DNA of 39,833 bases, from the NCBI GenBank assembly GCA_013375475.1, contig JABXKD010000022.1, forward strand, positions 1 to 39,833, read 5' to 3'. This DNA comes from Promethearchaeota archaeon (GTDB lineage Archaea > Asgardarchaeota > Lokiarchaeia > Sigyniarchaeales > SOKP01). The notes beneath the pieces were generated by a model that worked only from the letters and a program-made list of their open reading frames with translations, had not been told where the DNA came from and did not search any database. Below, piece after piece: positions 3,071-26,169 of this stretch (positions are counted from its first letter, which is position 1; every line of letters begins with the position of its first letter). The position numbers were made by a program, and so were the translations under genes.

Positions 3071-4360
3071 TTATCCCTCTAATAAATGAAACAATACAAT
3101 TGGTACTAAATTTCCTTCAAGGGATACCCGCTCATTGTCTGCACGATTCACTAAATTATTTGCCGTCTTATTTATCTCCTGTTCAGCAGAATCGAGATTG
3201 AACAATGTTCTATATTTTGGATCGTCTGGATTTGATAATATTTTCTTTTTCCATTTCAAACCTAAAGCATTTGCTTGTAATTGTAGCCCCGCTAATGCCA
3301 TTCCAGCCTCAACTTCGGCCCAATACTTAAGATTCATAATTCTGTGCATTAATCCAGCACACGGTTTTTTTCGATCTATACATAATAGTATGGCATAATT
3401 AGAAAAACTAGTATCAAACTCCTTCTCAATCTCAGCACTGATAGGCTCAGAGCTAAATTGTCGCAGAAAATGGTCGTAGGTTATGGTTCCATTAACCTTA
3501 ATCCATCGATTTAACGCAGAATACCCAACTGGATTATAGACGTACGATCCTTCTGAGATTTCAGCCAGATACTTTACATAAACTATTGGATATATTGCAT
3601 ATCCCGCACATCCTGATGCGTGCACACGACCATAACCATTTTTTTCTAAAGTATCACGATTTCCATGGGTCGCATGATCAGTCTCTCCTTGACAAGCCCA
3701 GAGAAGTTGAGAGATTTGGTGTAAATTTGTGTGGTTTGGTACCTTTTCATCAACCAGATTAAAAATAACATCATCTAATGGAACACCTTTATACTTATTC
3801 TCATAGATTGCGCGGTCCTTGTAGCAAGCTGGAGTGTCGAGTAAGATCGTGCCCTCCTCTACCTTTTTTTGAAGAGGTTTTGCAGTATCTTCTACTAACG
3901 ATGCCCTATCTCTCTCTCGAACTGCTACCGAATATAAAAACGCATGATTTTGATTCGTTAAATTGTTAACGAGCTTATTCAATTTTTTAGGCGCTCTTGC
4001 CCGTTGTGATACACCAAGTCCAATACTAACCACTTTTAAAGAGAGATATTGCCACGTAATCCCTACCCGAATTAAATCCTCGAATTCAATAGATTCCTTC
4101 CAAAACAATTCAGGATAAACTTCCATACTAAATTTTGTTTTTTCTTTATCAGATAATCGAACCAAACCATCGCTATTATATTTGTATATCCCTCTAGAGT
4201 AATCGTCCCCATCTGGTAAAACAACAAATAGAGATTTTAAAGGTGCCGCTTGAAGTGTAGAGTTACAAATCTCTTCAACTACAGATAACGGCAAAATACG
4301 ACCCTCACCAGAGCAATCTTTTCTTCTTGCCAAACACTCTTGTAAACTCATTTTAAACAT
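3071..4360 (-). CDS. SagB/ThcOx-type nitroreductase-fold protein with two tandem domains
   Basis: MSLQECLARR..., ISQLLWACQG, RVHASGCAGYAIYP, GSYVYNP and EAGMALAGLQLQANALGL resemble SagB-type motifs. A degenerate first copy occupies the N-terminal third (RGIYKY...VGITWQYLSLKVVSIGLG). Confidence 0.65.
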   Translation of the reverse strand: MFKMSLQECLARRKDCSGEGRILPLSVVEEICNSTLQAAPLKSLFVVLPDGDDYSRGIYKYNSDGLVRLSDKEKTKFSMEVYPELFWKESIEFEDLIRVGITWQYLSLKVVSIGLGVSQRARAPKKLNKLVNNLTNQNHAFLYSVAVRERDRASLVEDTAKPLQKKVEEGTILLDTPACYKDRAIYENKYKGVPLDDVIFNLVDEKVPNHTNLHQISQLLWACQGETDHATHGNRDTLEKNGYGRVHASGCAGYAIYPIVYVKYLAEISEGSYVYNPVGYSALNRWIKVNGTITYDHFLRQFSSEPISAEIEKEFDTSFSNYAILLCIDRKKPCAGLMHRIMNLKYWAEVEAGMALAGLQLQANALGLKWKKKILSNPDDPKYRTLFNLDSAEQEINKTANNLVNRADNERVSLEGNLVPIVLFHLLEG

Positions 4361-4444: not shown

Positions 4445-5533
4445 TTATTTCTGATCAGTTAAATATTCGTTCATTTCTACAAATGAACTCGTCCTAATTA
4501 ATGCTGCTTTTAAGAATTGAAATCCAATGTCATAAGTTGAGCCGTCTCCAGCTATATGGATGACATATGGCACTTCTCCGTTAAAGACATTCTTAGATTT
4601 TAGAATTTTATAGGTAGTACTAATAGCATCTGCGATTGTAGCACCTGATTCGAAAAGATGATGCACCCATGGCACTTTCCATGAAGTCACAAAGTCTTTG
4701 GATGTAGAAACTTCAGAGCAACTAGTATTATTTACATAAATAATATTATTTTCAGTTACAGCTGTGGCAGCAGTTGCTAATTGGTTTAGAACCATCCCAG
4801 CACCACAACCAGGACATAATCCATGACCTGGATGTAAATGTTGTTGAGGTTCTAAAGCTTTCCGGTTAACACGGTAAAAATCTACAGGTTTTTCAGCTCC
4901 AAATTGCTCAATCAAACCCTTTAATTTCAAATTTCGTTGCTCGGTGAGGTATATAATTTCATCTATCTCCCTTTCAAGGAATTTTGGCTTGAAAAGATGT
5001 TTAAACCGACCCATAGATTTAAGATATTCAACAAATTTCTCTTTATCAATATCTAATCCTCGATAATACGAGAAAGTTGGCACTCCATCTTTTACTCTAA
5101 TCGTATATAATGGCCAGTAACCGCAATCGGTAGCCATTTTTGAGATTTTCAAAGCATCGCTTGCTCCATGACGCCAGCCCCTCATACAGTCGGAATAAGA
5201 TTGAATAAAAGCTGATCCATCAGTTTTTAATGCTTCAGCTACTTTACCCATAAAATCATTAGGAAATGCTGGATTTGTCGTCGCTAAGAAAAGTGATTTT
5301 GTACCATAAAACGCAAATGGAGTAACTAAATCCTGTTTTACTCCAATCTTTCCAGGTATCTTTTCTCCTCCAGGTCCAGTAGTCGTTGATGCATATGGGG
5401 GTGTTCCACCTGACTCTTGAATACCTGTATTCATGAAAGCTTCGTTGTCATAATTAAAGAATAATACATTGCTTTTTCCATCTCGAGCAAGGATATCTTC
5501 AAACTTAATAATGTTTCGTTCTGGCTGAGACAT
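4445..5533 (-). CDS. porB: 2-oxoacid:ferredoxin oxidoreductase beta subunit, circularly permuted
   Basis: The N-terminal part carries YDNEAFMNTGIQES, SDCMRGW and GRFKHL, normally C-terminal. The C-terminal part carries GHGLCPGCG, NTSCSEV, WVHHLFE and GDGSTYDIG, normally N-terminal. Confidence 0.9.
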   Translation of the reverse strand: MSQPERNIIKFEDILARDGKSNVLFFNYDNEAFMNTGIQESGGTPPYASTTTGPGGEKIPGKIGVKQDLVTPFAFYGTKSLFLATTNPAFPNDFMGKVAEALKTDGSAFIQSYSDCMRGWRHGASDALKISKMATDCGYWPLYTIRVKDGVPTFSYYRGLDIDKEKFVEYLKSMGRFKHLFKPKFLEREIDEIIYLTEQRNLKLKGLIEQFGAEKPVDFYRVNRKALEPQQHLHPGHGLCPGCGAGMVLNQLATAATAVTENNIIYVNNTSCSEVSTSKDFVTSWKVPWVHHLFESGATIADAISTTYKILKSKNVFNGEVPYVIHIAGDGSTYDIGFQFLKAALIRTSSFVEMNEYLTDQK

Positions 5534-5534
5534 T

Positions 5535-6764
5535 TTAGATATCGACCCCCATTATTTTTTCTTTTGATTCCCTTACGCCAAGATACATATATAACTTACC
5601 TTTCATGTCATTGATAGATTCAATTTTCTTCTTTGCTACATCAAATTCATCTTTGGTTACATCTCGGCCTCCTAAACCAACAATGAAACTTCTAAAAATA
5701 GTTCCAAGCGGATATAAAGCTGAAGCAATTGACATTGAAAATGGTGGAAGCATTCCGTTTAAAGAATCGGATTTTTCTAGTATAATAAGTTTCTCGATAT
5801 GATGATCTTCAACTATCTTTTGTAATTGTTTATATGGAAAAGGTCGAAAAGTCCTAATTTTTATTAATCCTATATCCTTATTTTTTATCATCCAGCTGAT
5901 TATATTTCCACACATAGAACCCATTGTGACAAAAGCGGTATTAGAACTGTTATCTAAGTTATATGTTTCGATTAAATTATAATTTCGTCCAGTAGCTTTG
6001 CTAAATTCTTCAAATGTTTTTTCCATAATCTCTAATACTGGCTCTTTTGCTTCATCAAGTTGCTTTCTACCTTCCATAAAGAAGCTTGGAGTGACTATTC
6101 CCCCCCAAGTACCCGGTTTTTTAGTATTAATTGTATGTCTTGGCTTCTTGGGTGTTATTTTTCTTACTATTTCATCTGGAATCAAAGTTAGTTTTTGAAC
6201 TGAGTGAGATATAATAAATCCATCATGAACAAACATAGTCGGGAATAATGAGTCTTCCGAAATCATTACAGCTAAAATTGCTGCATCATAGGTTTCTTGC
6301 ACATTTTCTGACACAATTGTATTCCAACCTAGTTCTGAATTAGTTTGTGTAAATTCCCATGAATTCCATATTGATAAATTAGGTGAGTTGAATGCTCTTG
6401 CTGAAATCAACATTGTTAAAGGAACTCTCCATCCTACGGCCATTGGTAGGGCTTCAGTCATAAGTAGATATCCTTGAGAGGCTGTTGCTGTAAAAGTTCT
6501 AGCTCCAGCAGCACAAGCTGCGGTGGAATAAGAGATAGCTGCTAATTCTGATTCAACATTAACAAATGCCGCCTTTAATCTACCTTGATGAACCACATCA
6601 GACAAACCCTCTACCGATTGAGTTTGAGGAGTGATAGGAAAAGCACAGATAACATCAGGTTCAGTTTGAGTTACTGCTCCTGCTACGGCATAGTTTCCAA
6701 TCATGGTTGTTTCTATCGGTTCTCTAATTTCTTTAAAAAATACTTTCATAGGTTCAATTGACAT
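5535..6764 (-). CDS. porA: 2-oxoacid:ferredoxin oxidoreductase alpha subunit
   Basis: GNYAVA, FPITPQT, ESELAA, TATASQG, DGFIISH, FRPFP and GLGGRD. Start placed at ATG 6764 behind GGAGGT instead of the ORF-track start 6839. Confidence 0.9.
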   Translation of the reverse strand: MSIEPMKVFFKEIREPIETTMIGNYAVAGAVTQTEPDVICAFPITPQTQSVEGLSDVVHQGRLKAAFVNVESELAAISYSTAACAAGARTFTATASQGYLLMTEALPMAVGWRVPLTMLISARAFNSPNLSIWNSWEFTQTNSELGWNTIVSENVQETYDAAILAVMISEDSLFPTMFVHDGFIISHSVQKLTLIPDEIVRKITPKKPRHTINTKKPGTWGGIVTPSFFMEGRKQLDEAKEPVLEIMEKTFEEFSKATGRNYNLIETYNLDNSSNTAFVTMGSMCGNIISWMIKNKDIGLIKIRTFRPFPYKQLQKIVEDHHIEKLIILEKSDSLNGMLPPFSMSIASALYPLGTIFRSFIVGLGGRDVTKDEFDVAKKKIESINDMKGKLYMYLGVRESKEKIMGVDI

Positions 6765-6765
6765 A

Positions 6766-7767
6766 TTAATTACCTCCTTCTTGATCTTCTGGAACCGCAC
6801 ATGCTGCAGGCCCCTGTTTAAGTTTTTTACCAAATGCATTAACGGGACATATTTCTAAACAATTTAAGCATGATTTACAGTGAAAGCTGTCTATTCCTGC
6901 CATATGCCATAATCCATCGTCTCCTTTTTTTCGTACAATGGCAAAATCAGGGCATATATACCAACACTGTGCGCAGTCTGTACAGGTATCTTCATCCCAA
7001 ATTAGTTCCCATTCTCCCCAACTTCCCGTATTCACCTGATCACTACCAACGGAGATGATATCCTCATCGCAATACCACACTCCCGCTATATCTACTTCCT
7101 TATACCCTGGTAATCCTAATTCAACTTGTTGCCATGGAATTTTTGTATCAATTGTGAAATCAGGCTCAAGTCCCATATCATATACACAAGTTTCTTCAAT
7201 AGCTTGTTTAATTGCTTCAATGTTTTTTCCCGCTATTTCACCTTTAAACCGTCTTAGAATTGCATCAGATAATTCTTCTAAGGTAAAAATATAAGAAACT
7301 CGAATTAAAGCACCTAAAATGATAGTATTAGTAATGTTTCGACCTAATACATCTAATGCAATTCTAGTCGCATCGATAGTAGCGACATTAATATCCTTCC
7401 TTCCTACAGTTTGTTGAATACTCACTTGATCTAATGAGGTATTTACAATTAGCCATCCTCCTTTAGGCATTCCTGCTGTAACGTCTATTTCGCCCAATAA
7501 TGAAGAATCTAAGACAGATACGAAGTGGGGAGCATAAACTTGTTCATTGGATCTTATTAATTCTTCATTTGCGGATAATCTCACATAACTCTCTGTGGGG
7601 CTTCCCATACGCTCAGCACCAAATTTTGGTTGGCAAACACCATAACCATAAAATGCTTCAACGCACAAATTAGAAGCAGTTACCCCTCCTTGTCCTCCAC
7701 GGGCATGAAATCTTAAGTTAATCACATTGTTTTTTAATATTTCCTTAATATGTTCTGGAGTTAACAT
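6766..7767 (-). CDS. 2-oxoacid:ferredoxin oxidoreductase gamma-delta fusion subunit
   Basis: N-terminal gamma domain (HARGGQGGVT, FGAERMGSP, NTIILGAL) fused to a delta ferredoxin (TGSW, CTDCAQCWYICPD, CKSCLNCLEICP). Confidence 0.9.
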   Translation of the reverse strand: MLTPEHIKEILKNNVINLRFHARGGQGGVTASNLCVEAFYGYGVCQPKFGAERMGSPTESYVRLSANEELIRSNEQVYAPHFVSVLDSSLLGEIDVTAGMPKGGWLIVNTSLDQVSIQQTVGRKDINVATIDATRIALDVLGRNITNTIILGALIRVSYIFTLEELSDAILRRFKGEIAGKNIEAIKQAIEETCVYDMGLEPDFTIDTKIPWQQVELGLPGYKEVDIAGVWYCDEDIISVGSDQVNTGSWGEWELIWDEDTCTDCAQCWYICPDFAIVRKKGDDGLWHMAGIDSFHCKSCLNCLEICPVNAFGKKLKQGPAACAVPEDQEGGN

Positions 7768-10670: not shown

Positions 10671-12161
10671 CTAATATCCACATTTTGCTTTCAACTGATT
10701 CCATTGCAAATCAATTCTTTCTTGAATTTCTAGAATAATTGATTTGAATTTTTCACTAAATAGATGTTTAAATCTTCCCTGCATTTTTAAATATTCTTCT
10801 ATTTGAATTTTTTCTTGTTTTCCATCAGCGATTAATTTTGAGAGTCCAGTAATCCTGTATTTATTATTTTTAACTTCATAAGTAGGCCAAAAGCAAGTCT
10901 TAACGGCGAGCTTTGATAATTCAATAGTCTTTTCTGGATCAAATCTCCATCCTCGAGGGCAAGGTGAGATAACATTAATAAATTTTGGTCCTTTAATATT
11001 AAATGCTTTACCAACCTTTGCAATTAAATCATTATATAATCCTGGTGAAGTCTGGGCGACATAGGGTATTCGATGAGCAACCATAATTTCGGTCAAATCT
11101 TTAGGAAATTCTTTTTTGCCTGGAATAACAATACCCGCAGGTGAGGTGGTGGTTGATGCTCCTTTTGAAGTTGCACTACTTCTTTGAATTCCTGTATTCA
11201 TATATGCTTCATTATTAAAACATATATATAAAAAGTCATGTCCTCTTTCTACAGCACCAGATAATGCTTGAAGTCCTATATCATATGTTCCGCCATCCCC
11301 TCCAAATGCTAAAAATTTTATTTCATCATCTTTAATTCGACCTGTTCTTTTTAAAACCCTATAACAAGCTTCTACACCCGAAATTGTTGATGCTGCATTC
11401 TCAAAAGCAGAGTGAATCCAAGGGATTTTCCATGAAGTATATGGATATATCGTAGTGGCAACTTCAGTACATCCTGTAGCATTTGAAATAATAACAGGGT
11501 TATTAGTAGCATGTAATACTTGTCTGATAATTATCGATTCTGCACATCCAGCACATAACCTATGACCTGAAGCTATGCGATCTGGTGTTTTAGAGTATTT
11601 TTTAACTAGAAATTCAACTTCTCCTGTTGGACAAACTTTTACACATTCATTACAATTGATACATAGATCAGTTTCCATATTAAAAAGAGTAGTTACTTTT
11701 TTATCTAAACCCCTATCAGAAAAATTAATAGCATGAGCACCAACAATTTCATCGCACACTCTTACACATAAACCACATAGCAAACAATTCTCATGTTGTA
11801 AGGGAAATCGAGTTTTTTCAACTCCCATTTTTTTTGCTAGTTCTTTTATATATTTTACATTAGGGCATCTTGCGAGCATTAATTCAATAAGCATCTTTCT
11901 GATTTTTATAACTTCATTGGAGTTCGTTTTAACTACCATTTCTCCCTTGATTGGATAATTACACGATGTTACAAAACTAGATCTTCCTTCTTTAATTATT
12001 TCCACTGTGCATAGTCTACAACTACCATATAAACTCAAATTTTTATGATAACATAATGTAGGAATCATAAATTCATTTTCTTTTAACACATCAAGGAGAA
12101 TTCTCCCTTTTTCTACTCCTATATTTTTATTATCTATATTAATTTTAATCATTTTTCTCAC
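10671..12161 (-). CDS. porB: Fusion of a HydA/NuoG/HoxU-type N-terminal Fe-S domain with a pyruvate:ferredoxin oxidoreductase beta subunit
   Basis: aa 1-185: IPTLC..GSCRLC..TSC [2Fe-2S], plus [11 protein letters not shown] and [12 protein letters not shown]. aa ~195-496: [41 protein letters not shown]. Start is GTG 12161 (GTGA overlap) or ATG 12152. Confidence 0.92.
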   Translation of the reverse strand: [496 protein letters not shown]

Positions 12162-14005
12162 TCTTTTATTATCGCATTAAATTGACAAGAATCAATACAA
12201 ATTCCACATTTTATGCATTTATCCTGATCAATAATGTACAATTCTTTTTTTTCACCAGATATAGCTTCCTTAGGGCATTTAACAGCACATACCCCACAAC
12301 CCGTACAATCATCAATAATTTTAAAAATAATAAGATTTTTGCATACTCTCGCAGGACATTTCTTATCTTTTATGTGGGCGTAATATTCTTCCTTGAAATA
12401 CTTTAATGTCGTTAAAACAGGATTCGATGCGGTAGTACCTAAAGCACATAAACATGATTTTTTCATTACATTTGAAATTTCTTCCAATAACTCTAAATCC
12501 TTCTCTTCTCCATTTCCATCACATATCATATTTAAAATATTTAACATTTGTCTTATACCCTCCCTGCAGGGTACACATTTACCGCATGATTCATCCACCA
12601 AGAAATTTAAAAAGTATTTAGCAATATCTACCATGCAAGTATCTTCATCCATCACTATCATCCCCCCCGAGCCCATCATTGACCCTAATTTTGATAATTC
12701 GTCGAAATCTATTGATAAATCAATAAATTCCTCTGGAATACATCCTCCCGAGGGTCCACCTGTTTGAACAGCCTTAAATTTTTTACCATCTTTTATCCCA
12801 CCCCCAATTTTATAAATAATATCTCTTAGTGATGTTCCTAATGGTACTTCAACTAACCCTGTATTCTTTACATTACCAACTAAAGAAAATATTTTTGTTC
12901 CCGGATTATTTTCAGATCCTATAGCTTTGAACCAATCACTACCATTTTTTATAATAAAAGGTACATTCGCCCAAGTCTCCACATTGTTTAAATTTGTTGG
13001 TTTTCCGTAAAGCCCTTCTTCAGACATATGTATATATTTTGGAATTGGTTCTCCTACTTTTCCCTCTAAAGATTTAATAAGTGCACTTGATTCACCTGAA
13101 ACAAACGCTCCTGCACCTCTAAAAACTTTAATATCAAAATTTAGACCTGATCCTAAAATATTTTCTCCTAAAAGCCCATATTTTCTGGCTTGGTCTAGAG
13201 CAATATATACATTTTCTACTGCTAATGGATACTCCTCCCTTATATATATATAACCTTGATTTGAACCAATCGCATAGGCACCAATAATAAATCCTTCCAA
13301 TACTGAATGTGGATTACCTTCCATAAGAGATCTATTCATATAAGCCCCTGGATCGCCCTCATCACAATTAACAATTATATATTTGGACACGCCAGATGCA
13401 TTGCGAGTGGACTCCCATTTTATTCCTGAAGGAAATCCACCCCCCCCTCTACCCCGAAGATTTGCCTTTTTTATTTCTTCTAATACATCTTCAGGTTTCA
13501 TTTTTAAGGCTTTTATTAGAGCAGAATAGCCTCCTATAGCAATATAATCTTCAATTTTTTTAGGATTAATTTTTAAATTATTACCCAAAATAAGTCGTTT
13601 TTGATTTTTATAAAAAGGAATTTCTGATTCATGAACCAATTCTTCTTCATTCTCGGTATATACTAATCTCTTAATGATTTCTCCTTTTTTAATAGTTTTT
13701 GAAATAATTTCAAGAATATCTTCAGGTTTTACTTGAAGATAACAGAGTTCTTCTGGATAAATCACAACAATAGGACCTCTCTCACAAAAACCATGACATC
13801 CAGTTCTTTTAATATCTACTTTATCTGTTAATTTCTGTTCTTCAAGGATTTGATGGAATTTAGCCGCAATTTCATTACAACCATATGCTTGGCAACCCGT
13901 TCCTGAACATACCGTGATGCAGGACCTTTTAGGGTCGATATTTGCTACTAATTCATTTCTTAACTTTTGTAAATCATCAAATAAATTTAATATCATAATT
14001 TTCAC
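12158..14005 (-). CDS. nuoF: HydB/NuoF-type NAD(P)H- and FMN-binding subunit (bifurcating-type architecture)
   Basis: N-terminal [2Fe-2S] (CSGTGC..GCHGFC), LRGRGGGGFP, NCDEGDPGA, NNVET, GGPSGG, SCGKCVPCREG, H..CPARVC and C-terminal 2x[4Fe-4S]. Confidence 0.93.
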   Translation of the reverse strand: MKIMILNLFDDLQKLRNELVANIDPKRSCITVCSGTGCQAYGCNEIAAKFHQILEEQKLTDKVDIKRTGCHGFCERGPIVVIYPEELCYLQVKPEDILEIISKTIKKGEIIKRLVYTENEEELVHESEIPFYKNQKRLILGNNLKINPKKIEDYIAIGGYSALIKALKMKPEDVLEEIKKANLRGRGGGGFPSGIKWESTRNASGVSKYIIVNCDEGDPGAYMNRSLMEGNPHSVLEGFIIGAYAIGSNQGYIYIREEYPLAVENVYIALDQARKYGLLGENILGSGLNFDIKVFRGAGAFVSGESSALIKSLEGKVGEPIPKYIHMSEEGLYGKPTNLNNVETWANVPFIIKNGSDWFKAIGSENNPGTKIFSLVGNVKNTGLVEVPLGTSLRDIIYKIGGGIKDGKKFKAVQTGGPSGGCIPEEFIDLSIDFDELSKLGSMMGSGGMIVMDEDTCMVDIAKYFLNFLVDESCGKCVPCREGIRQMLNILNMICDGNGEEKDLELLEEISNVMKKSCLCALGTTASNPVLTTLKYFKEEYYAHIKDKKCPARVCKNLIIFKIIDDCTGCGVCAVKCPKEAISGEKKELYIIDQDKCIKCGICIDSCQFNAIIKE

Positions 14006-14448
14006 TTATACTTTTTTAGAATTTTATTTATTTTACCGGGACTCATATTTCCGTAATAATTCTTATTAACAATCATAACAGGACCTAATGCGCAACATCC
14101 TAAACAGTTAACACTTTCTAAACTAAATAAACCATCCTTTGATGTTTCCCCACTTTTAATTTCTAATTCCCTTTCTACACTTTCAAGTATTCGCTGAGAA
14201 CTTCTAACATGACAAGCAGTACCAAGACATACTCTTATATGGTATTTACCCCTTGGCTTTAGGGAGAAAGCTTTATAAAAAGTAGCAACTTGATATATAT
14301 CCAACATAGGAATTTTCATTTTTTCGCTAATAAGTTCTAAGGCATCTTTTGGTAGATAATTATATTTTGCTTGTGTATCATGCAGAACTGATATTAATTG
14401 GGAGGAGTCATGATCAAATTTTTCTATAATTTCCTTAATTTCTTTCAT
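14002..14448 (-). CDS. nuoE: HydC/NuoE-type [2Fe-2S] subunit
   Basis: VATFY, CLGTACHV and VNCLGCCALGP. Confidence 0.93.
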   Translation of the reverse strand: MKEIKEIIEKFDHDSSQLISVLHDTQAKYNYLPKDALELISEKMKIPMLDIYQVATFYKAFSLKPRGKYHIRVCLGTACHVRSSQRILESVERELEIKSGETSKDGLFSLESVNCLGCCALGPVMIVNKNYYGNMSPGKINKILKKYK

Positions 14449-14452
14449 ATAA

Positions 14453-15619
14453 TCACCTTACATTAAAATATTTTACGTAATTCTCTAGTTTACCGGTTTT
14501 AGAGATATCATTGATTTCATTGAAGATTTTTTCAATATCTTTAATGGTGGTATCCCTTCCTCCTAATCCATAAATAAAATTTACAATTTCAGCATCAATC
14601 TTTTTAAATACAGAACTTCTCACTTCAGAAAACAATGGACCTCCAAAACCTCCAAAACTATCGCTTCTATCCATAATTGCGATAACTTTAACATTTTTCA
14701 ATGAATTAATAATATCCTCCCTTGGAAAAGGTCTAAATAATCTTAATTTTAATAAACCCGCTTTTACACCCTTTTTTCTTATATTATCTATAGCAGCTTT
14801 TACTGTACCAGCAGTACTACCTAATATGACAATTGCAACCTCTGCATCATCAAGTTTATACTTTGTTAATGTATTATAATTCCTTCCCGTAATATCTCCA
14901 AATTCTTTTCCAACATCTTTTACGATTCTTAATGATTTTTGTAATGCTTCATGTTCCTGTTTCTTATGTTCCATATAGTAATCATATAAGGCTACAGGAC
15001 CAATTGTTATAGGATTATTAAAATTTAAGAGAGGATGTACAGGATTATAACTTCCAATAAAATTTTTTACTTCATTATCTTCTAAAGCATTATATCTTTC
15101 AACAGAATGAGAAACAATGAAACCATCAATACATGGCATAACAGGTAATCTAGAAATTTCTGCGATTTTTACAGCTTGTATAATATTATCATAGCCTTCT
15201 TGAACATTCTCACCATAGATTTGTATCCAACCTGCGTCACGTGCTCCCATACTATCCGCATGATCGCAATGTATATTTAAAGGCGCTGAAAGCGCTCTAT
15301 TCATTACGCCCATAACAATCGGGAGTCTTAATGAAGACGCTACATATAGTAATTCCCACATAAAAGCTAACCCAGCAGAAGCAGTTGAGGTTATAACTCT
15401 TCCACCCGCAGCAGATGCCCCAATGCACGCAGACATTGCAGAATGTTCAGATTCCGTAGCAACAAACTCTGTATCGACTTTTCCGTCTGCTACATATTCT
15501 GAGAATTTTTCAATCGCAATAGTTTGTGGTGTTATAGGATAACCTGCTACGACATCAGGATTAATTTGCTTCATTGCATATGCAATAGCACTATCACCAT
15601 TCATTGCTAGCACGTTCAT
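14453..15619 (-). CDS. porA: Pyruvate:ferredoxin oxidoreductase alpha subunit
   Basis: YPITPQT, ESEHSAMSA, NRALSAPLNIHCDHAD, DGFIVSH and GLGGRD. Confidence 0.95.
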   Translation of the reverse strand: MNVLAMNGDSAIAYAMKQINPDVVAGYPITPQTIAIEKFSEYVADGKVDTEFVATESEHSAMSACIGASAAGGRVITSTASAGLAFMWELLYVASSLRLPIVMGVMNRALSAPLNIHCDHADSMGARDAGWIQIYGENVQEGYDNIIQAVKIAEISRLPVMPCIDGFIVSHSVERYNALEDNEVKNFIGSYNPVHPLLNFNNPITIGPVALYDYYMEHKKQEHEALQKSLRIVKDVGKEFGDITGRNYNTLTKYKLDDAEVAIVILGSTAGTVKAAIDNIRKKGVKAGLLKLRLFRPFPREDIINSLKNVKVIAIMDRSDSFGGFGGPLFSEVRSSVFKKIDAEIVNFIYGLGGRDTTIKDIEKIFNEINDISKTGKLENYVKYFNVR

Positions 15620-15888
15620 TTTTCTACCTCCATAGTTATTGCTTCTTTAGGACATTCATTCGAGCATATTCCACATCCTTTGCAAAAATCATAATTTATT
15701 CCTTTTATTTTTTCATCCTCAATAATTATAGAGCCATCAGGACAATATGCCCAACAAACAAGACAATGAATACATTTCTCTTCATCTCGTGTAGGTTTTC
15801 TTGCTCTCCATGACCCTGTTTTATAATTTATTGAGTTACCGGGTTCAAGTATTAAAGCTCCTTCAGGTATCTCTTTCCATCCTTTCAT
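15616..15888 (-). CDS. porD: Pyruvate:ferredoxin oxidoreductase delta subunit
   Basis: KTGSWR, CIHCLVCWAYCPD and YDFCKGCGICSNECP. Confidence 0.95.
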   Translation of the reverse strand: MKGWKEIPEGALILEPGNSINYKTGSWRARKPTRDEEKCIHCLVCWAYCPDGSIIIEDEKIKGINYDFCKGCGICSNECPKEAITMEVEK

Positions 15889-16454
15889 TATTCCACCTCA
15901 ATATATGCTCTATTAACGGCATCAATATTTCCCTTAATAATTTTATCTGAGAATTTTTTTCCCAAAACTTCTCTAATTGTAGCTATTATGTTCTCCTTTT
16001 GTATAATCCCCGAAATTTTTGATAATGCAGCAACACCACAGACATTTGCCAAAGGTTTTCCAATAGTTTCCAGAGCTATTTTTGTAGCATTAATAACAAA
16101 GATTTTACCTTGAAATTTTGTTATTTCTCTTATTTTTTCTTTGGATAAATTAGTATTTACAATTAAAATTCCATCTCTTTTTAATCCTTCAGCTACATTA
16201 ATTTGCTCCAATAATGTGGGATCTAAAACGATAACAGCATCAGGTTCATATACTTGGGAATGAATGGTTATTGGCTTATTATCAATTCTAGTGTAAGCTT
16301 TAACCGGAGCACCCATTCTCTCGGGACCAAAATCAGGAAAAGATTGTAAATATTGATCCTCTTTGAGAGCTGCATATGCAAGAATTTCTGATGCGGTTAC
16401 CACTCCTTGTCCACCTCGACCATGCCACCTTACTTCATACATTTCTTCAACCAT
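15888..16454 (-). CDS. porG: Pyruvate:ferredoxin oxidoreductase gamma subunit
   Basis: EVRWHGRGGQGVVTA and FGPERMGAPV. TAATG overlap with porD. Confidence 0.95.
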   Translation of the reverse strand: MVEEMYEVRWHGRGGQGVVTASEILAYAALKEDQYLQSFPDFGPERMGAPVKAYTRIDNKPITIHSQVYEPDAVIVLDPTLLEQINVAEGLKRDGILIVNTNLSKEKIREITKFQGKIFVINATKIALETIGKPLANVCGVAALSKISGIIQKENIIATIREVLGKKFSDKIIKGNIDAVNRAYIEVE

Positions 16455-23113: not shown

Positions 23114-23980
23114 TCAATTATTAATTTTCTTATCTTGTGCTTTAATTCGTACTTGTTCTATTTTTTCGCTAAATCCTTCCCGTGTCTCCTCAACAAATTC
23201 CCCGCATATTATAATCCCTCTCTTGAAATCAAAAGTTGCTTGACTAGGGGCCCAATCAACTTTAATTTTAATTTGTTTTTTTAACCATTCTAGTATCTCT
23301 ACAGCATCGCCTAATTTATTTTTAGAACCATATTGAACAAAACAAGGGGCAAGCACTTCTATAAAGCTAAATCCTTGATTGTCTATAGATTTAAAAATAC
23401 TTTTTTGTAATCGAATTGTGTCATATCCAGGCCATCTAGCGACATATGTCGCTCCTGACGCCGCCGCTAGATTTACTAAATTGAAAGGAGATTCCACATT
23501 TCCATAAGGTGTTGTTTGAGTAATGTCTCCAATTTGAGTTGTTGGGGCTACTTGTCCTCCAGTCATTCCATATATATTGTTATTTATACAGAGAACTGTT
23601 ATCTCTACATTTCTTCTAGCAGCATGGATAAAATGATTCCCACCTATAGCAAAAAGATCTCCATCTCCCGATAGAACTATAACCTTTAATTTAGGATTTG
23701 CTAATTTTATACCCGTAGCAAAAGGTATAGCTCTCCCATGTGTAGTATGGAAGGCTGGTGCTTTAAAGCATCCACTTGATCGACCAGTACATCCTATACC
23801 AGATACTATGGCGTAATCTTTAGATGTAAGACCTCTTTCTTTTAAACAACTTGCAATTGATGTAATTACCGTTCCAATTAAACAACCCGGACAAAAAATG
23901 AATCGATTTAAATTTAACATATCATTTAAGGGGTGAGCAAGTGTTTCAGGGGGGATTGATGTTTGATCAGATGGACTCAT
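23114..23980 (-). CDS. korB: 2-oxoglutarate/2-oxoacid:ferredoxin oxidoreductase beta subunit
   Basis: FCPGC, SGIGC, HGRA, SGDGDLFAIGGNH and NNNIYGMTGGQ. Confidence 0.93.
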   Translation of the reverse strand: MSPSDQTSIPPETLAHPLNDMLNLNRFIFCPGCLIGTVITSIASCLKERGLTSKDYAIVSGIGCTGRSSGCFKAPAFHTTHGRAIPFATGIKLANPKLKVIVLSGDGDLFAIGGNHFIHAARRNVEITVLCINNNIYGMTGGQVAPTTQIGDITQTTPYGNVESPFNLVNLAAASGATYVARWPGYDTIRLQKSIFKSIDNQGFSFIEVLAPCFVQYGSKNKLGDAVEILEWLKKQIKIKVDWAPSQATFDFKRGIIICGEFVEETREGFSEKIEQVRIKAQDKKINN

Positions 23981-23983
23981 ATG

Positions 23984-25129
23984 TTAAACCTCCTCCATCA
24001 ACTTTTTATAAATAAATTTAGGACTAAAAGGAATGGTAGTAGGAATTGTAATGCCAGAAACAGTAAACAAATGTCGAAATCTCTGAACTTCTCTAATTAT
24101 CATTCCATTGTTCATTTCACAAACAATAACCTTTGATGCTCCCATTTGTCCAATTCTTTCCATTACTTCGTCAGGAAACGGCCATAGAGTTTTTAATCGG
24201 ACAAGTCCCACCTTATATCCTTTTTGACGTGCTTGCTCAACGGCTTCTGGCACGCCTCTTGCATTAATTCCATAGGCTAAGATAACGATTTCAGCATCAT
24301 CTAAATGTTTTTCTTCCCAATCATTAATTTGAGGTCTTGCTCTTTTAATTTTATCACAAAGCCGTTTGATTAGAACCTCTGCGGCTTCTGGAGTCATTTG
24401 AGGATTACCTTCTATGTCATGAGTCAAACCTGAAACATAAAATGAGTAGCTCGTTCCTGCTATTGCCATTCCAGGCACAAGATCATCATCAAAAGCTTCA
24501 AAAGGTTTATATTTCTCTGGTGGAACTTGAGGTTTTTTACGCTCTACTAATTCAATATTTGAATGGATATTAACGACTTCCATCATTTGCCCTAAAATTC
24601 CGTCTGAAGCGACAATTACAGGTATACGATATTTCTCAGATAAATTAAATGCTTGTATGGTAAAATCATACATTTCTTGAACTGTAGATGGGGCTAATAC
24701 AATTATTTCATAATCTCCATGAGAAGCGTATCTCGTTTGATATACATCTGATTGAGACGCATTTGTGGGTTGTCCTGTACTAGGGCCCCCTCTCATTATC
24801 GTGACGATAACCGCTGGTACTTCTAACATAATTCCTAAACCTATACTTTCAGCCATAAGTGAAAGACCGGGTCCTGAAGTTGCGGTCATAACTTTCTTTC
24901 CAGCATAAGAAGCTCCAAAACAACTTGTGATTGAAGCCAGCTCATCTTCCATTTGAACAAATGTTCCATTAACTTGAGGAAGGCGTCTTGACATGTAAGC
25001 AGCAATTTCTGAGGATGGTGTGATAGGATAACCCGCAAAATATAAACATCCTGCTGTAATCGCACCTTCTGCACATGCAGAATTTCCAGTAGTTAATATT
25101 CTTTTTTCTTGGATATTTGCATTACTCAT
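23984..25129 (-). CDS. korA: 2-oxoglutarate/2-oxoacid:ferredoxin oxidoreductase alpha subunit
   Basis: AGYPITPSSE, QMEDE, TATSGPG, RGGPSTG, LWPFP and EMNNG. Confidence 0.93.
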   Translation of the reverse strand: MSNANIQEKRILTTGNSACAEGAITAGCLYFAGYPITPSSEIAAYMSRRLPQVNGTFVQMEDELASITSCFGASYAGKKVMTATSGPGLSLMAESIGLGIMLEVPAVIVTIMRGGPSTGQPTNASQSDVYQTRYASHGDYEIIVLAPSTVQEMYDFTIQAFNLSEKYRIPVIVASDGILGQMMEVVNIHSNIELVERKKPQVPPEKYKPFEAFDDDLVPGMAIAGTSYSFYVSGLTHDIEGNPQMTPEAAEVLIKRLCDKIKRARPQINDWEEKHLDDAEIVILAYGINARGVPEAVEQARQKGYKVGLVRLKTLWPFPDEVMERIGQMGASKVIVCEMNNGMIIREVQRFRHLFTVSGITIPTTIPFSPKFIYKKLMEEV

Positions 25130-25409
25130 TGTTTATAACTTCCTTGTTATCTTTTTCCAAAATATATAATGAAACAGTAGGACATAACCGTTCACATTGT
25201 CTGCATCCTGCACACCCTTCAGGTTTAACCACGATCGCATAATGGAGCATGCGACTATTAAACTTATCTTCACTTATTTCTATTAAATCTTTTGGACAGA
25301 ATGACAAACATAATTCGCAACCATCGCATTGTTCAGAATCTATAATTATTTCATACTTTTTCTCGGGGGAAGGAGGTGGCAAAATAGGTGTTCGTTTAGA
25401 TTCTAACAT
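25122..25409 (-). CDS. korD: 2-oxoacid:ferredoxin oxidoreductase delta subunit (2x[4Fe-4S])
   Basis: CDGCELCLSFCP and CAGCRQCERLCP. Overlaps the korA start. Confidence 0.88.
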   Translation of the reverse strand: MLESKRTPILPPPSPEKKYEIIIDSEQCDGCELCLSFCPKDLIEISEDKFNSRMLHYAIVVKPEGCAGCRQCERLCPTVSLYILEKDNKEVINNE

Positions 25410-25602
25410 TTTTTAATCCTCTAATATACTTACACATCTGACTATATTTATTACTCTTATTCTTTAAAATAAAAGGTTCTCTTTTAAATTTGCTTTTTCG
25501 AAGCAGTAGTAGCCTACTAAATAGCGATTCCTTTTTGTGAAATTATCTTTTTGAGATATCATAAGTCTAATCTTTTTAGTTTTTGATAAAAGAAAATACA
25601 TT

Positions 25603-26169
25603 TTATTGAAATTGATTTTTTAATTCCTGATAGAGTGCTTGACCAAGTTGATAACTTTGAATATTGACTTCTCTAAACCGTTTTGGCATACTACTTAAAA
25701 CCTGGTTGTAGTAGTCTTCTTTTAAATCAATTTTCCTACTCTCTTTAAGATATTGTGAAAGGAATCCTAAACAAAGAATATTCGCACTCTGAGGTATTTT
25801 TTTTTCATCAGCTCGCCTCGTAATTGGAACAAGATGAAATTTTCCTTTCTGGATGATTTCCTCGGCGTTATTAATTGTATGCTCATCGATAAAAGAACGA
25901 GTTTTTTCATATATGCATTCAGAGGCGCGTTTGAATCCTTTTTGATCTATAGCAATAAAAATATCAGCATCTTTATCGCAGAATGGATATGAAATAGGAG
26001 TAGAGCTTAGAATAACGTCACAAAAAATAGGTCCCCCTCTAACGGAAGGTGTATAGTCAACTGTTAGTGTTGCATAATAATTACCAACCATTGCAACTCG
26101 AACTAATATACTTCCTAAAAATTTGATACCTTGTCCGCCGCGACCAGAAAATCGCAATTTTAATTTCAT
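25603..26169 (-). CDS. korC: 2-oxoacid:ferredoxin oxidoreductase gamma subunit
   Basis: FSGRGGQGI, YTPSVRGG and ANILCLG. Confidence 0.85.
   Translation of the reverse strand: MKLKLRFSGRGGQGIKFLGSILVRVAMVGNYYATLTVDYTPSVRGGPIFCDVILSSTPISYPFCDKDADIFIAIDQKGFKRASECIYEKTRSFIDEHTINNAEEIIQKGKFHLVPITRRADEKKIPQSANILCLGFLSQYLKESRKIDLKEDYYNQVLSSMPKRFREVNIQSYQLGQALYQELKNQFQ

Follow-up and report, generated by a model that had tools for sequence, protein, structure and literature searches.

Natural circular permutation of a PorB-type 2-oxoacid:ferredoxin oxidoreductase beta subunit in one class of Asgard archaea

The stretch of DNA analyzed here, called the window in the following, comprises 39,833 nucleotides (nt) of contig JABXKD010000022.1 from a Promethearchaeota archaeon (assembly GCA_013375475.1; class Lokiarchaeia) and harbors on its minus strand a tightly packed three-gene unit for a 2-oxoacid:ferredoxin oxidoreductase (OFOR). 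The gene order is gamma-delta / alpha / beta, with spacers of 1 nt. The first gene (6766..7767) encodes a fusion of 333 amino acids (aa), in which a POR (pyruvate:ferredoxin oxidoreductase) gamma domain is joined to a two-[4Fe-4S] delta domain, as seen by matches to the Pfam POR and Fer4 families. The fusion passes the cutoff of PorC_KorC (154 bits, cutoff 81.1) and matches OxalOxreddelta over residues 52-313. The alpha subunit (5535..6764; POR_N and PFOR_II by Pfam) lies within an open reading frame (ORF) of 434 aa, which overlaps the gamma-delta gene. Since all nine alpha orthologs found in ten distant loci align from residue 26 of this ORF (q26), the alpha subunit really comprises 409 aa, starting at Met26 one nt past the gamma-delta stop. 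The last gene (4445..5533; 362 aa plus stop) encodes the subject of this study, a circularly permuted PorB-type beta subunit called cp-beta. Its ORF is intact, begins with ATG and is separated from the alpha stop codon TAA by the single base at position 5534, in agreement with an earlier note on this DNA. A promoter and terminator scan of the window, which used bacterial consensus sequences, gave matches no more frequent than in shuffles.

The permuted order of cp-beta is confirmed. Here, the homology blocks of a normal beta subunit are reversed and the cofactor residues are invariant. The new N-terminal head (aa 1-19; 5477..5533) does not align to the hidden Markov model (HMM) of normal betas described below and is moderately conserved; in the AlphaFold2 (AF2) model a short strand (6-10) and a helix (11-15) are predicted for it. 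The N-half (aa 20-193; 4955..5476) is the counterpart of the native C-terminal half of the subunit and corresponds to HMM positions 121-282 of 301 and to residues 119-284 of 9bt4_C. It carries the strand with Y28-D29-N30, which is the second part of the motif for thiamine pyrophosphate (TPP) and Mg, the TPP loop, C116 and GRFKHL. A connector (aa 194-224; 4862..4954), again not aligned to the HMM, consists of a remnant of the native C-terminal helix and about 18 new residues leading from the old C-terminus to the old N-terminus. The C-half (aa 225-352; 4478..4861), the native N-terminal half, covers HMM positions 7-125 and 9bt4_C 6-115 and carries C240-x2-C243, C272 and G329-D330-G331 with its helix. 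The protein ends with a new C-terminal tail (aa 353-362 plus stop; 4445..4477) of low confidence in the AF2 model. All motifs quoted in the earlier note sit at the residues given there, which are NVLFFNYDNEAFMNTG from N22, D29-N30, SDCMRGW (C116) and GRFKHL (175-180) in the first half, and GHGLCPGCG (C240, C243), TSC (C272) and GDGSTYDIGFQFLKAALIR (G329-D330-G331) in the second.

The exchange of the halves relative to normal PorB, as the note had proposed, was found in three ways: by two reversed high-scoring segment pairs in BLASTP, by reversed HMM domains and by a reversed match to solved structures. The normal PorB quoted for comparison is the 496-aa ORF at 10671..12161 of the minus strand. 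Against this ORF, the N-half of cp-beta matched with q24-196 to s311-485 (71/179, 40%, E 3e-32) and the C-half with q232-352 to s195-311 (43/121, 36%, E 8e-24), and both matches abut at subject residue 311. The beta subunit of the pyruvate:ferredoxin oxidoreductase (PFOR) of Methanosarcina acetivorans (9bt4_C) was matched by q229-347 at 6-115 and by q23-195 at 119-284 (E 7.1e-46), and that of the oxalate oxidoreductase (OOR) of M. thermoacetica (5c4i_C) by q228-347 at 12-127 and by q22-186 at 130-289 (E 2.7e-42).

For a separate alignment of each half, a normal-order HMM of 301 positions was built from 47 stand-alone betas of 285-345 aa with a Met start; five of 52 candidates had been dropped, as they lacked an N-terminal CxxC followed by GDG. 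The permuted family was represented by 104 full-length members, comprising 103 of 120 listed relatives (16 shorter than 340 aa and one of 343 aa were dropped) and the cluster representative P0122. The HMM gave two domains in reversed order in 104/104 permuted members and a single domain in 47/47 normal betas, so that the reversal expected by the note was obtained throughout. Among the 104 members the N-half spans HMM positions 116-123 to 281-298 and the C-half 4-10 to 120-131, and a single breakpoint is common to all of them. Jointly the halves cover about positions 4-298 of 301, and no part of the core is missing from the family. In most relatives the alignment of the N-half extends to about residue 206, and therefore the truly new linker amounts to about 18 residues. 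An unaligned linker segment, as described earlier, does exist, although it does not strictly fall at aa 210-230; in the window protein the unaligned segment spans 194-224.

At the median, only about five HMM positions are shared by the two halves, the N-half starting at 121 and the C-half stopping at 125 (extremes 116 and 131). In a few members, an alignment of the tail to the strand-DN region was obtained. The idea that the head (aa 1-23) and the tail (aa 345-362) are relics of a tandem duplication was not supported by profile tests. With hhalign, the head was placed at the native N-terminus with E 0.061 (probability 0.9%), and the EYLKLQG region was assigned to the tail with E 0.094; neither match is significant, and neither lies at the predicted place. 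The tail deviates in one relative, L032 (G123:C221), in which an in-frame TAG lies 13 codons short of the usual end (...RAG*WGIQN...) and is followed by family-like sequence. Truncation of the tail, recoding or an error in sequencing could account for this TAG, which suggests that the new C-terminal tail may be dispensable.

The cut falls inside the TPP/Mg motif, between the GDG helix and the DN strand by the homology blocks, which bears out a further claim of the note. In the native chain the order is strand, GDG, helix, turn, strand and (D/N)N. In cp-beta, the new C-terminus comes after the GDG helix (...GDGSTYDIGFQFLKAALIR-TSSF...) and the new N-terminus before the strand (...NVLFFNYDN). 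The AF2 model (predicted template modeling score, pTM, 0.84; mean predicted local distance difference test, pLDDT, 74.8) shows a strand at 323-328, helices at 330-333 and 337-349 and a strand at 21-30. The connector is modeled as a helix (187-211) followed by a strand (212-221), with block pLDDT values of 78-92, and according to this model the helix prolongs the native C-terminal helix. Foldseek and VIA both gave PFOR and PorB as the nearest folds.

In the account of thiamine diphosphate (ThDP) enzyme folds given in bioRxiv 10.1101/2021.03.21.436335, the PP domain is described as a parallel sheet of strand order 213465, with the diphosphate bound by the fourth of its helix-turn-strand repeats. 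Seen in this way, the cut parts the helix from the strand of repeat 4, which is the crossover between the sheet halves 2-1-3 and 4-6-5, and the permuted chain would run through 4-6-5 first and 2-1-3 second. Judged from the alpha/beta topology and the secondary structure of the model, the chain is expected to be broken at a distance from the cofactor edge, at the opposite side of the sheet.

Conservation within the family is high at the positions that matter for the cofactors. Across 17 permuted members down to 54% identity, the mean column identity is 73%. All four cysteines that the note had assigned to the proximal cluster (C116, C240, C243, C272) align to conserved Cys columns of 9bt4_C, 5c4i_C and the normal-order HMM, which we take to be the [4Fe-4S] cluster ligands known from PFOR structures, and are invariant in 17/17 members. 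The same holds for G329-D330-G331 and N27-Y28-D29-N30. Also invariant are E31 to Q39 except for position 34, which with Y28-D29-N30 form the block YDNEAFxNTGIQ, T50-T52, and, within the connector, L207 and Y220. GDG and D29-N30 align to the motif positions of normal betas, with the sequence order reversed. Nei-Gojobori dN/dS values against 13 relatives were 0.061, 0.028, 0.041 and 0.081 in the four pairs with estimable dS; the other nine pairs are saturated at synonymous sites (pS 0.76-0.88), with pN of 0.067-0.086. Cp-beta is thus under strong purifying selection.

The partner subunits are retained along with it. In eight of ten loci from other genera and families the order gamma-delta / alpha / cp-beta is kept. 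The two exceptions are G279, in which gamma-delta and alpha lie about 540 kb away from cp-beta, and G129, in which gamma-delta is found on another contig. An alpha ortholog (E <= 1e-100) is present in 129/400 genomes with the same family profile as cp-beta; 123 genomes hold both, eight cp-beta only and six alpha only, and for at least seven of these 14 discordant cases the match is no more than about 300 nt away from the end of a contig. The alpha subunit has a mean column identity of 79% across the class, with E71-S72-E73 invariant. Modeling of alpha together with cp-beta, part of a check that the note had suggested for alpha and gamma-delta, gave an interface with an ipSAE of 0.81 compared to 0.00 for the best of three controls; the mark used for this score is reached by 58/80 solved complexes and by 2/110 mismatched pairs. 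Between runs, 98% or more of the contacts agree, and the partner pLDDT is at least 85. The modeled interface is formed by beta 262-358, a stretch that takes in the native N-terminal half, the GDG helix and some of the tail residues (355 and 357-358 being among the contacts), and by alpha 37-108 and 206-228. It sets alpha 71-75 against beta 295-343, as would be the case in a PYR-PP cofactor interface. The model supports binding of alpha to cp-beta, and its pass may partly stem from likeness to solved related complexes.

A search of Asgard genomes for the same order was likewise proposed in the note. With one genome sampled per species and a threshold of E <= 1e-40, cp-beta was detected in 131 of 400 genomes from the phylum, including five single-contig genomes (G135, G138, G143, G189, G279). 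Within the window's class, and with G000 excluded, cp-beta is present in 107/134 genomes of family f1, 1/1 of f2, 12/14 of f3, 4/4 of f4, 1/3 of f5, 2/2 of f6 and 2/2 of f7. Outside this class there is only one positive genome, G075 of family f16, whose cp-beta is truncated and 85% identical. This genome also holds two alpha copies of 85-86% identity (at C23:772-2799 and C29:1440-2636, the coordinates of the system), and its copy is likely due to bin contamination or recent transfer. The identity of cp-beta drops with taxonomic distance, from 82-93% within the genus to 51-63% within the same order and 52-58% in other families of the class.

A protein search returned 247 relatives. Among the 120 listed, most have 359-368 aa, are 54-95% identical and 97-100% collinear, and they include about 100 metagenomic protein clusters drawn from NCBI, JGI, ENA and Logan, several of them on contigs longer than 100 kb. 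The source names read Promethearchaeota, Lokiarchaeota, Helarchaeota and similar, which fits the attribution to Asgard archaea. Furthermore, 1.84 billion cluster representatives (50% identity) were searched with HMMER. Of 1216 matches, the best 150 contain one further full-length collinear representative (P0122, 55% identity) and seven fragments, and the remainder consists of 135 normal-order proteins matching in two stretches and seven half-length ones; independent permutants of low score may exist beyond these best 150. In a FastTree phylogeny of 67 sequences and 287 columns, for which the permuted halves were re-ordered for alignment only, the permuted clade is monophyletic (17/17) with a support of 1.0; the support for its sister group is 0.16. 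Besides cp-beta, the genome of the window holds three normal PorB-type betas and one KorB-type beta, and the permuted enzyme is therefore an additional paralogous OFOR.

Half-length proteins were also encountered in the HMMER search. Seven single-stretch matches among the best 150 of 1216 start near the breakpoint (P0181, P0222, P0223, P0226, P0248, P0249, P0256). At least P0222, P0248 and P0256 have no start Met and resemble contig-edge fragments, and none of the seven was used as evidence for split genes. P0181, P0223 and P0249 are half-size PorB-like proteins with a Met start at or just before the strand-DN element and may represent either betas that are split in nature or gene calls cut short. 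P0226 (413 aa), a normal-order PorB fragment, contains a LAGLIDADG_3 homing-endonuclease domain (40.5 bits) as an intein-like insertion, located at the GDG motif or immediately beside it.

With respect to family and substrate, alpha and cp-beta score best against PorA and PorB, while the models for 2-oxoisovalerate:ferredoxin oxidoreductase (VOR), OOR and phenylglyoxylate score lower still. Alpha reaches 310 bits against PorA_Arch (cutoff 550) and 147 against the OOR model (cutoff 500). Cp-beta reaches 166 bits against NF008818 (cutoff 405) and 179 against OxalOxredbeta (cutoff 590), and each equivalog model matches it in two stretches. In databases, the relatives are named 'hypothetical protein' (NCBI) or 'beta subunit' (JGI), the order is not remarked upon, and many of the listed relatives have no precomputed Pfam domain.

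Taken together, cp-beta is very probably a functional, naturally permuted beta subunit of a three-gene POR/VOR-type OFOR, which originated once near the base of the class and has been kept by selection. The recurrence of the order, the invariant cofactor residues and the purifying selection speak for the functional natural permutant that the note had suggested. The data show the reversed order, its conservation and distribution, the selection, the operon and the co-occurrence with alpha, and we infer cofactor binding, catalysis, formation of a heterodimer and a single origin. Mechanistically, the ancestral N- and C-termini would have been joined by the connector of about 18 new residues, and new termini would have been opened in the connection that leads from the GDG helix to the following beta-strand with D-N at its end. 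The GDG-X(n)-NN motif is thereby split between the ends of the protein in sequence, and its parts would be expected to rejoin at the cofactor edge of the sheet. Cp-beta would pair with its own alpha ortholog via the former N-terminal half. The permutation would go back to a single event, at the base of the Asgard class of the window or close to it, and would have been under strong purifying selection since.

Several findings weigh against this interpretation. The long stem of the permuted clade leaves room for a functional shift. The AF2 confidence is below 50 at residues 31-43 and 47-68, the loop past DN that is expected to touch TPP, which may take on order only once the holo-complex has formed. 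With sequential aligners, a superposition on PFOR domain VI or PorB was reached for only about half of the model (Foldseek TMq 0.41; VIA Z 9.8-11.9 over 172-187 residues, a match of the N-half), as is expected of a permutant, and aligners of this kind cannot test the permutation itself. The pass of Pfam TPP_enzyme_C (PF02775) is marginal and covers one half only (26.4 bits, cutoff 21.9), and cp-beta stays below the NCBIfam PorB equivalog NF008819 (202.2 bits, cutoff 405), falling short of the equivalog cutoffs because its halves are permuted. Related genomes are not independent, hence the counts of co-distribution overstate the support. Moreover, two sequencing runs that confirm the junction, X2 and X3, belong to the study that also produced the possible source run.

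It is hardly conceivable that the swapped order is an artefact of assembly or binning, arising from a chimeric or mis-joined contig. The window does stem from a metagenome-type assembly of 288 contigs with 6.41% contamination, and the note had named a misassembly at the junction as a danger. This is not borne out: the permuted order occurs in closed genomes, and contigs from other runs bridge the connector. When coverage across the junction was checked, contigs X3 record 10 (4704-5039) and X2 record 2 (4803-5039) were found to cross nt 4862-4954 with 0 differences. The connector is also spanned by a 369-nt contig of a 94%-identical relative from a metatranscriptome library of another study, in which an 885-nt contig bridges the alpha/beta boundary. 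In the RNA library X7, contigs differing by 6-9% from the window give a weak hint of transcription in a relative, with DNA possibly included; runs with small word shares (X5, X6, X8-X15) were set aside for questions of habitat or expression. The collinear protein in the 131 genomes, the five single-contig ones among them, and in about 100 independent protein clusters of several sources speaks against an artefact as well, and so does a dN/dS far below 1; a shared systematic error is implausible given the long-read closed genomes. Multiple independent origins of the permuted order, or its lateral spread, instead of one vertical event at the class level, would be a very improbable scenario. The truncated copy of G075 outside the class would fit it, as would NCBI labels of listed relatives that include Thor- and Hermodarchaeota at 83-84% identity, and an insert in the gene of G276, described below, lies 7 nt from the site of its own genus, so that the region is dynamic. 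On the contrary, the permuted proteins form one well-supported clade with an identical breakpoint in 104/104 members, their identity falls with taxonomic distance, and the cases outside the class are near-identical to those within, as from contamination, mislabeling or recent transfer.

More weight, albeit still little, is given to the possibility that cp-beta is a non-catalytic subunit derived from an OFOR, which retained fold and clusters for electron transfer or scaffolding and in which the TPP chemistry was lost or altered. The length of the stem branch (1.07 substitutions per site) would be in line with this, as would alpha and beta both lying below every equivalog cutoff and the poorly modeled TPP loop. 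The normal betas of the genome, three of PorB type and one of KorB type, would provide a redundancy permitting neofunctionalization. However, all residue classes expected for TPP/Mg binding are invariant (GDG, YDNEAFxNTGIQ except position 34, and T50-T52), the partner alpha is conserved across the class, with E71-S72-E73 invariant, and the predicted pairing of alpha 71-75 with beta 295-343 is that of a PYR-PP cofactor interface. The functional, singly derived permutant thus stays the preferred reading.

The best match among solved structures is PorB of the four-subunit PFOR of M. acetivorans (9bt4 chain C), with which cp-beta shares elements of the TPP motif and the four-Cys pattern. The operon partners gamma, delta and alpha are the same, and NF008819 is the best NCBIfam family for cp-beta. 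In contrast to PorB, cp-beta has reversed halves, a linker of about 18 residues, a head of 19 and a tail of 10 residues and a score of half the equivalog cutoff, and its gamma and delta partners are fused. The second-best solved relative is the OOR beta of Moorella thermoacetica (5c4i, 5exd, 5exe; VIA Z 10.3 over 173 residues), and OOR likewise has a fused gamma-delta-type subunit. The OOR beta is of normal order, however, and since the permuted system scores far below the OOR cutoffs, nothing points to oxalate as substrate. Betas of PorB/PadI type fused to Fe-S domains, such as the ORF at 10671-12161, are end-to-end fusions with normal internal order and show that PorB tolerates N-terminal change; this ORF is the closest paralog of cp-beta in the genome (40% and 36% in two blocks).

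The domain orders PP-PYR-CFX (dehydrogenases, transketolases) and PYR-CFX-PP (decarboxylases, PFOR) of ThDP enzymes are called a circular permutation in the discussion of domain order in bioRxiv 10.1101/2021.03.21.436335. As presented there, that permutation moves whole domains, whereas cp-beta is cut inside the PP domain, within the same 213465 sheet. A circular permutant of an OFOR, or one within a domain of a ThDP enzyme, was not found in full-text searches of the literature, the supplements of Asgard genome papers lying outside their scope. The note, too, knew of no described OFOR example; although absence from print is not proven by such searches, the rearrangement is apparently undescribed.

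The GDG-X-NN motif is, to our knowledge, a signature of all ThDP enzymes. A conserved family in which this motif is split to the ends of the chain would mean that the PP fold can be interrupted where the chain crosses over from one sheet half to the other, and cp-beta would represent a natural template for engineering split or permuted OFORs. The permutation is enough for standard annotation to call the protein hypothetical. 2-Oxoacid oxidoreductases are central to the proposed amino-acid-fermenting, syntrophic lifestyle of Asgard archaea, and because permuted betas are named hypothetical and many carry no Pfam domain, metabolic reconstructions can miscount these enzymes. The permuted beta is also a clean molecular marker for one Asgard class.

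In five relatives an insert interrupts the cp-beta gene within the invariant block MNTG|IQES, at codon 37/38 or close to it: L029 (G163), L030 (G274), L031 (G273), L033 (G159) and L034 (G276). The site corresponds to about nt 5420-5423 of the window, whose own gene has no insert. An in-frame insert of 30 nt with a TGA is found in G163, G274 and G273 and a frame-breaking one of 31 nt at the same site in G159, while G276 carries a different 31-nt insert 7 nt downstream. Every insert contains a hairpin of 7-9 bp and the genes are otherwise intact; a comparison of G163 with G273 reveals compensatory changes of both bases in three of the nine stem pairs. The minimum-free-energy fold of G276 is a near-canonical hBHBh' (BHB, bulge-helix-bulge), with a 7-bp exon-exon helix, a 4-bp central helix (UCCA/UGGA) and a 9-bp intron hairpin. 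Its bulges comprise 3 nt on one strand and 4 nt facing a single A on the other, and the cuts that restore ...GIQESGG... lie inside both bulges. This fold fits the BHB definition as worded in a 2026 preprint on Asgard tRNA introns, and the other four inserts fold as relaxed BHB versions. By their folds, the inserts look like candidate BHB mini-introns in an Asgard protein-coding gene.

A mobile repeat was rejected as an explanation, since the hairpin element occurs only inside cp-beta in the five genomes and two other pattern matches (in G163) are not hairpins. Among the 120 listed of 247 relatives, 11 of 16 short clusters start at an internal Met past the insert site and run to the native C-terminus (P0090, P0091, P0092, P0097, P0101, P0107, P0108, P0110, P0112, P0116, P0119), some of them on contigs of 17-148 kb. 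Their starts equal M95, about M99, M117, or lie just past residue 80. This is consistent with gene calls truncated by an upstream insert, and contig ends could explain some of the cases. Spliced protein-coding genes of archaea are known for crenarchaeal cbf5 (PMC2738675). The 2026 preprint deals with heavily intron-interrupted tRNA genes of Asgard archaea; in its text, the sole 'protein-coding' passage concerns neighboring genes and the word 'mRNA' does not occur.

A wider significance can only be put forward tentatively, and we consider it somewhat doubtful as a whole. Cp-beta could represent the first natural permutation inside the PP domain of any ThDP enzyme and a trait of a Lokiarchaeia-type class that defines a lineage-specific OFOR, its termini and stem reflecting a changed substrate or partner, and the inserts of 30-31 nt could be BHB mini-introns spliced from mRNA in several lineages. 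If true, splicing of archaeal protein genes would be extended beyond crenarchaeal cbf5 to Asgard archaea, and the mini-inserts may offer a route to mRNA splicing in the closest archaeal relatives of eukaryotes.

Directly downstream of cp-beta lies an ORF of 429 aa (3071-4360, minus strand) with no Pfam match and with 35.9 bits against the SagB-family dehydrogenase TIGR03605 (cutoff 78.4). This SagB-like ORF, a 220-aa membrane ORF and the FlpD-like and FrhB-like ORFs had no match in any of ten distant cp-beta loci and were for this reason excluded from the system.

A second OFOR cluster occupies 10671-16454 of the minus strand. It consists of a POR gamma (15888-16454), a short frame with a CxxC ferredoxin-type motif (near 15684), an alpha (14453-15619), a NuoE-like 2Fe-2S protein (14002-14448), a NuoF-like FMN/NADH module with extra Fe-S domains (12158-14005) and the PorB fused to N-terminal Fer2 and Fer4 domains (10671-12161). 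This layout recalls NADH-dependent phenylglyoxylate dehydrogenase, with a PadI score of 218 bits compared to a cutoff of 700, and the cluster may encode an NAD(H)-linked or bifurcating POR. The third set is of KorAB type and lies at 23114-26169, also on the minus strand. It comprises a beta (23114-23980), an alpha (23984-25129), two ferredoxin-type CxxC motifs in one reading frame (near 25214-25328) and a gamma (25603-26169), so that three OFOR systems are present within 40 kb.

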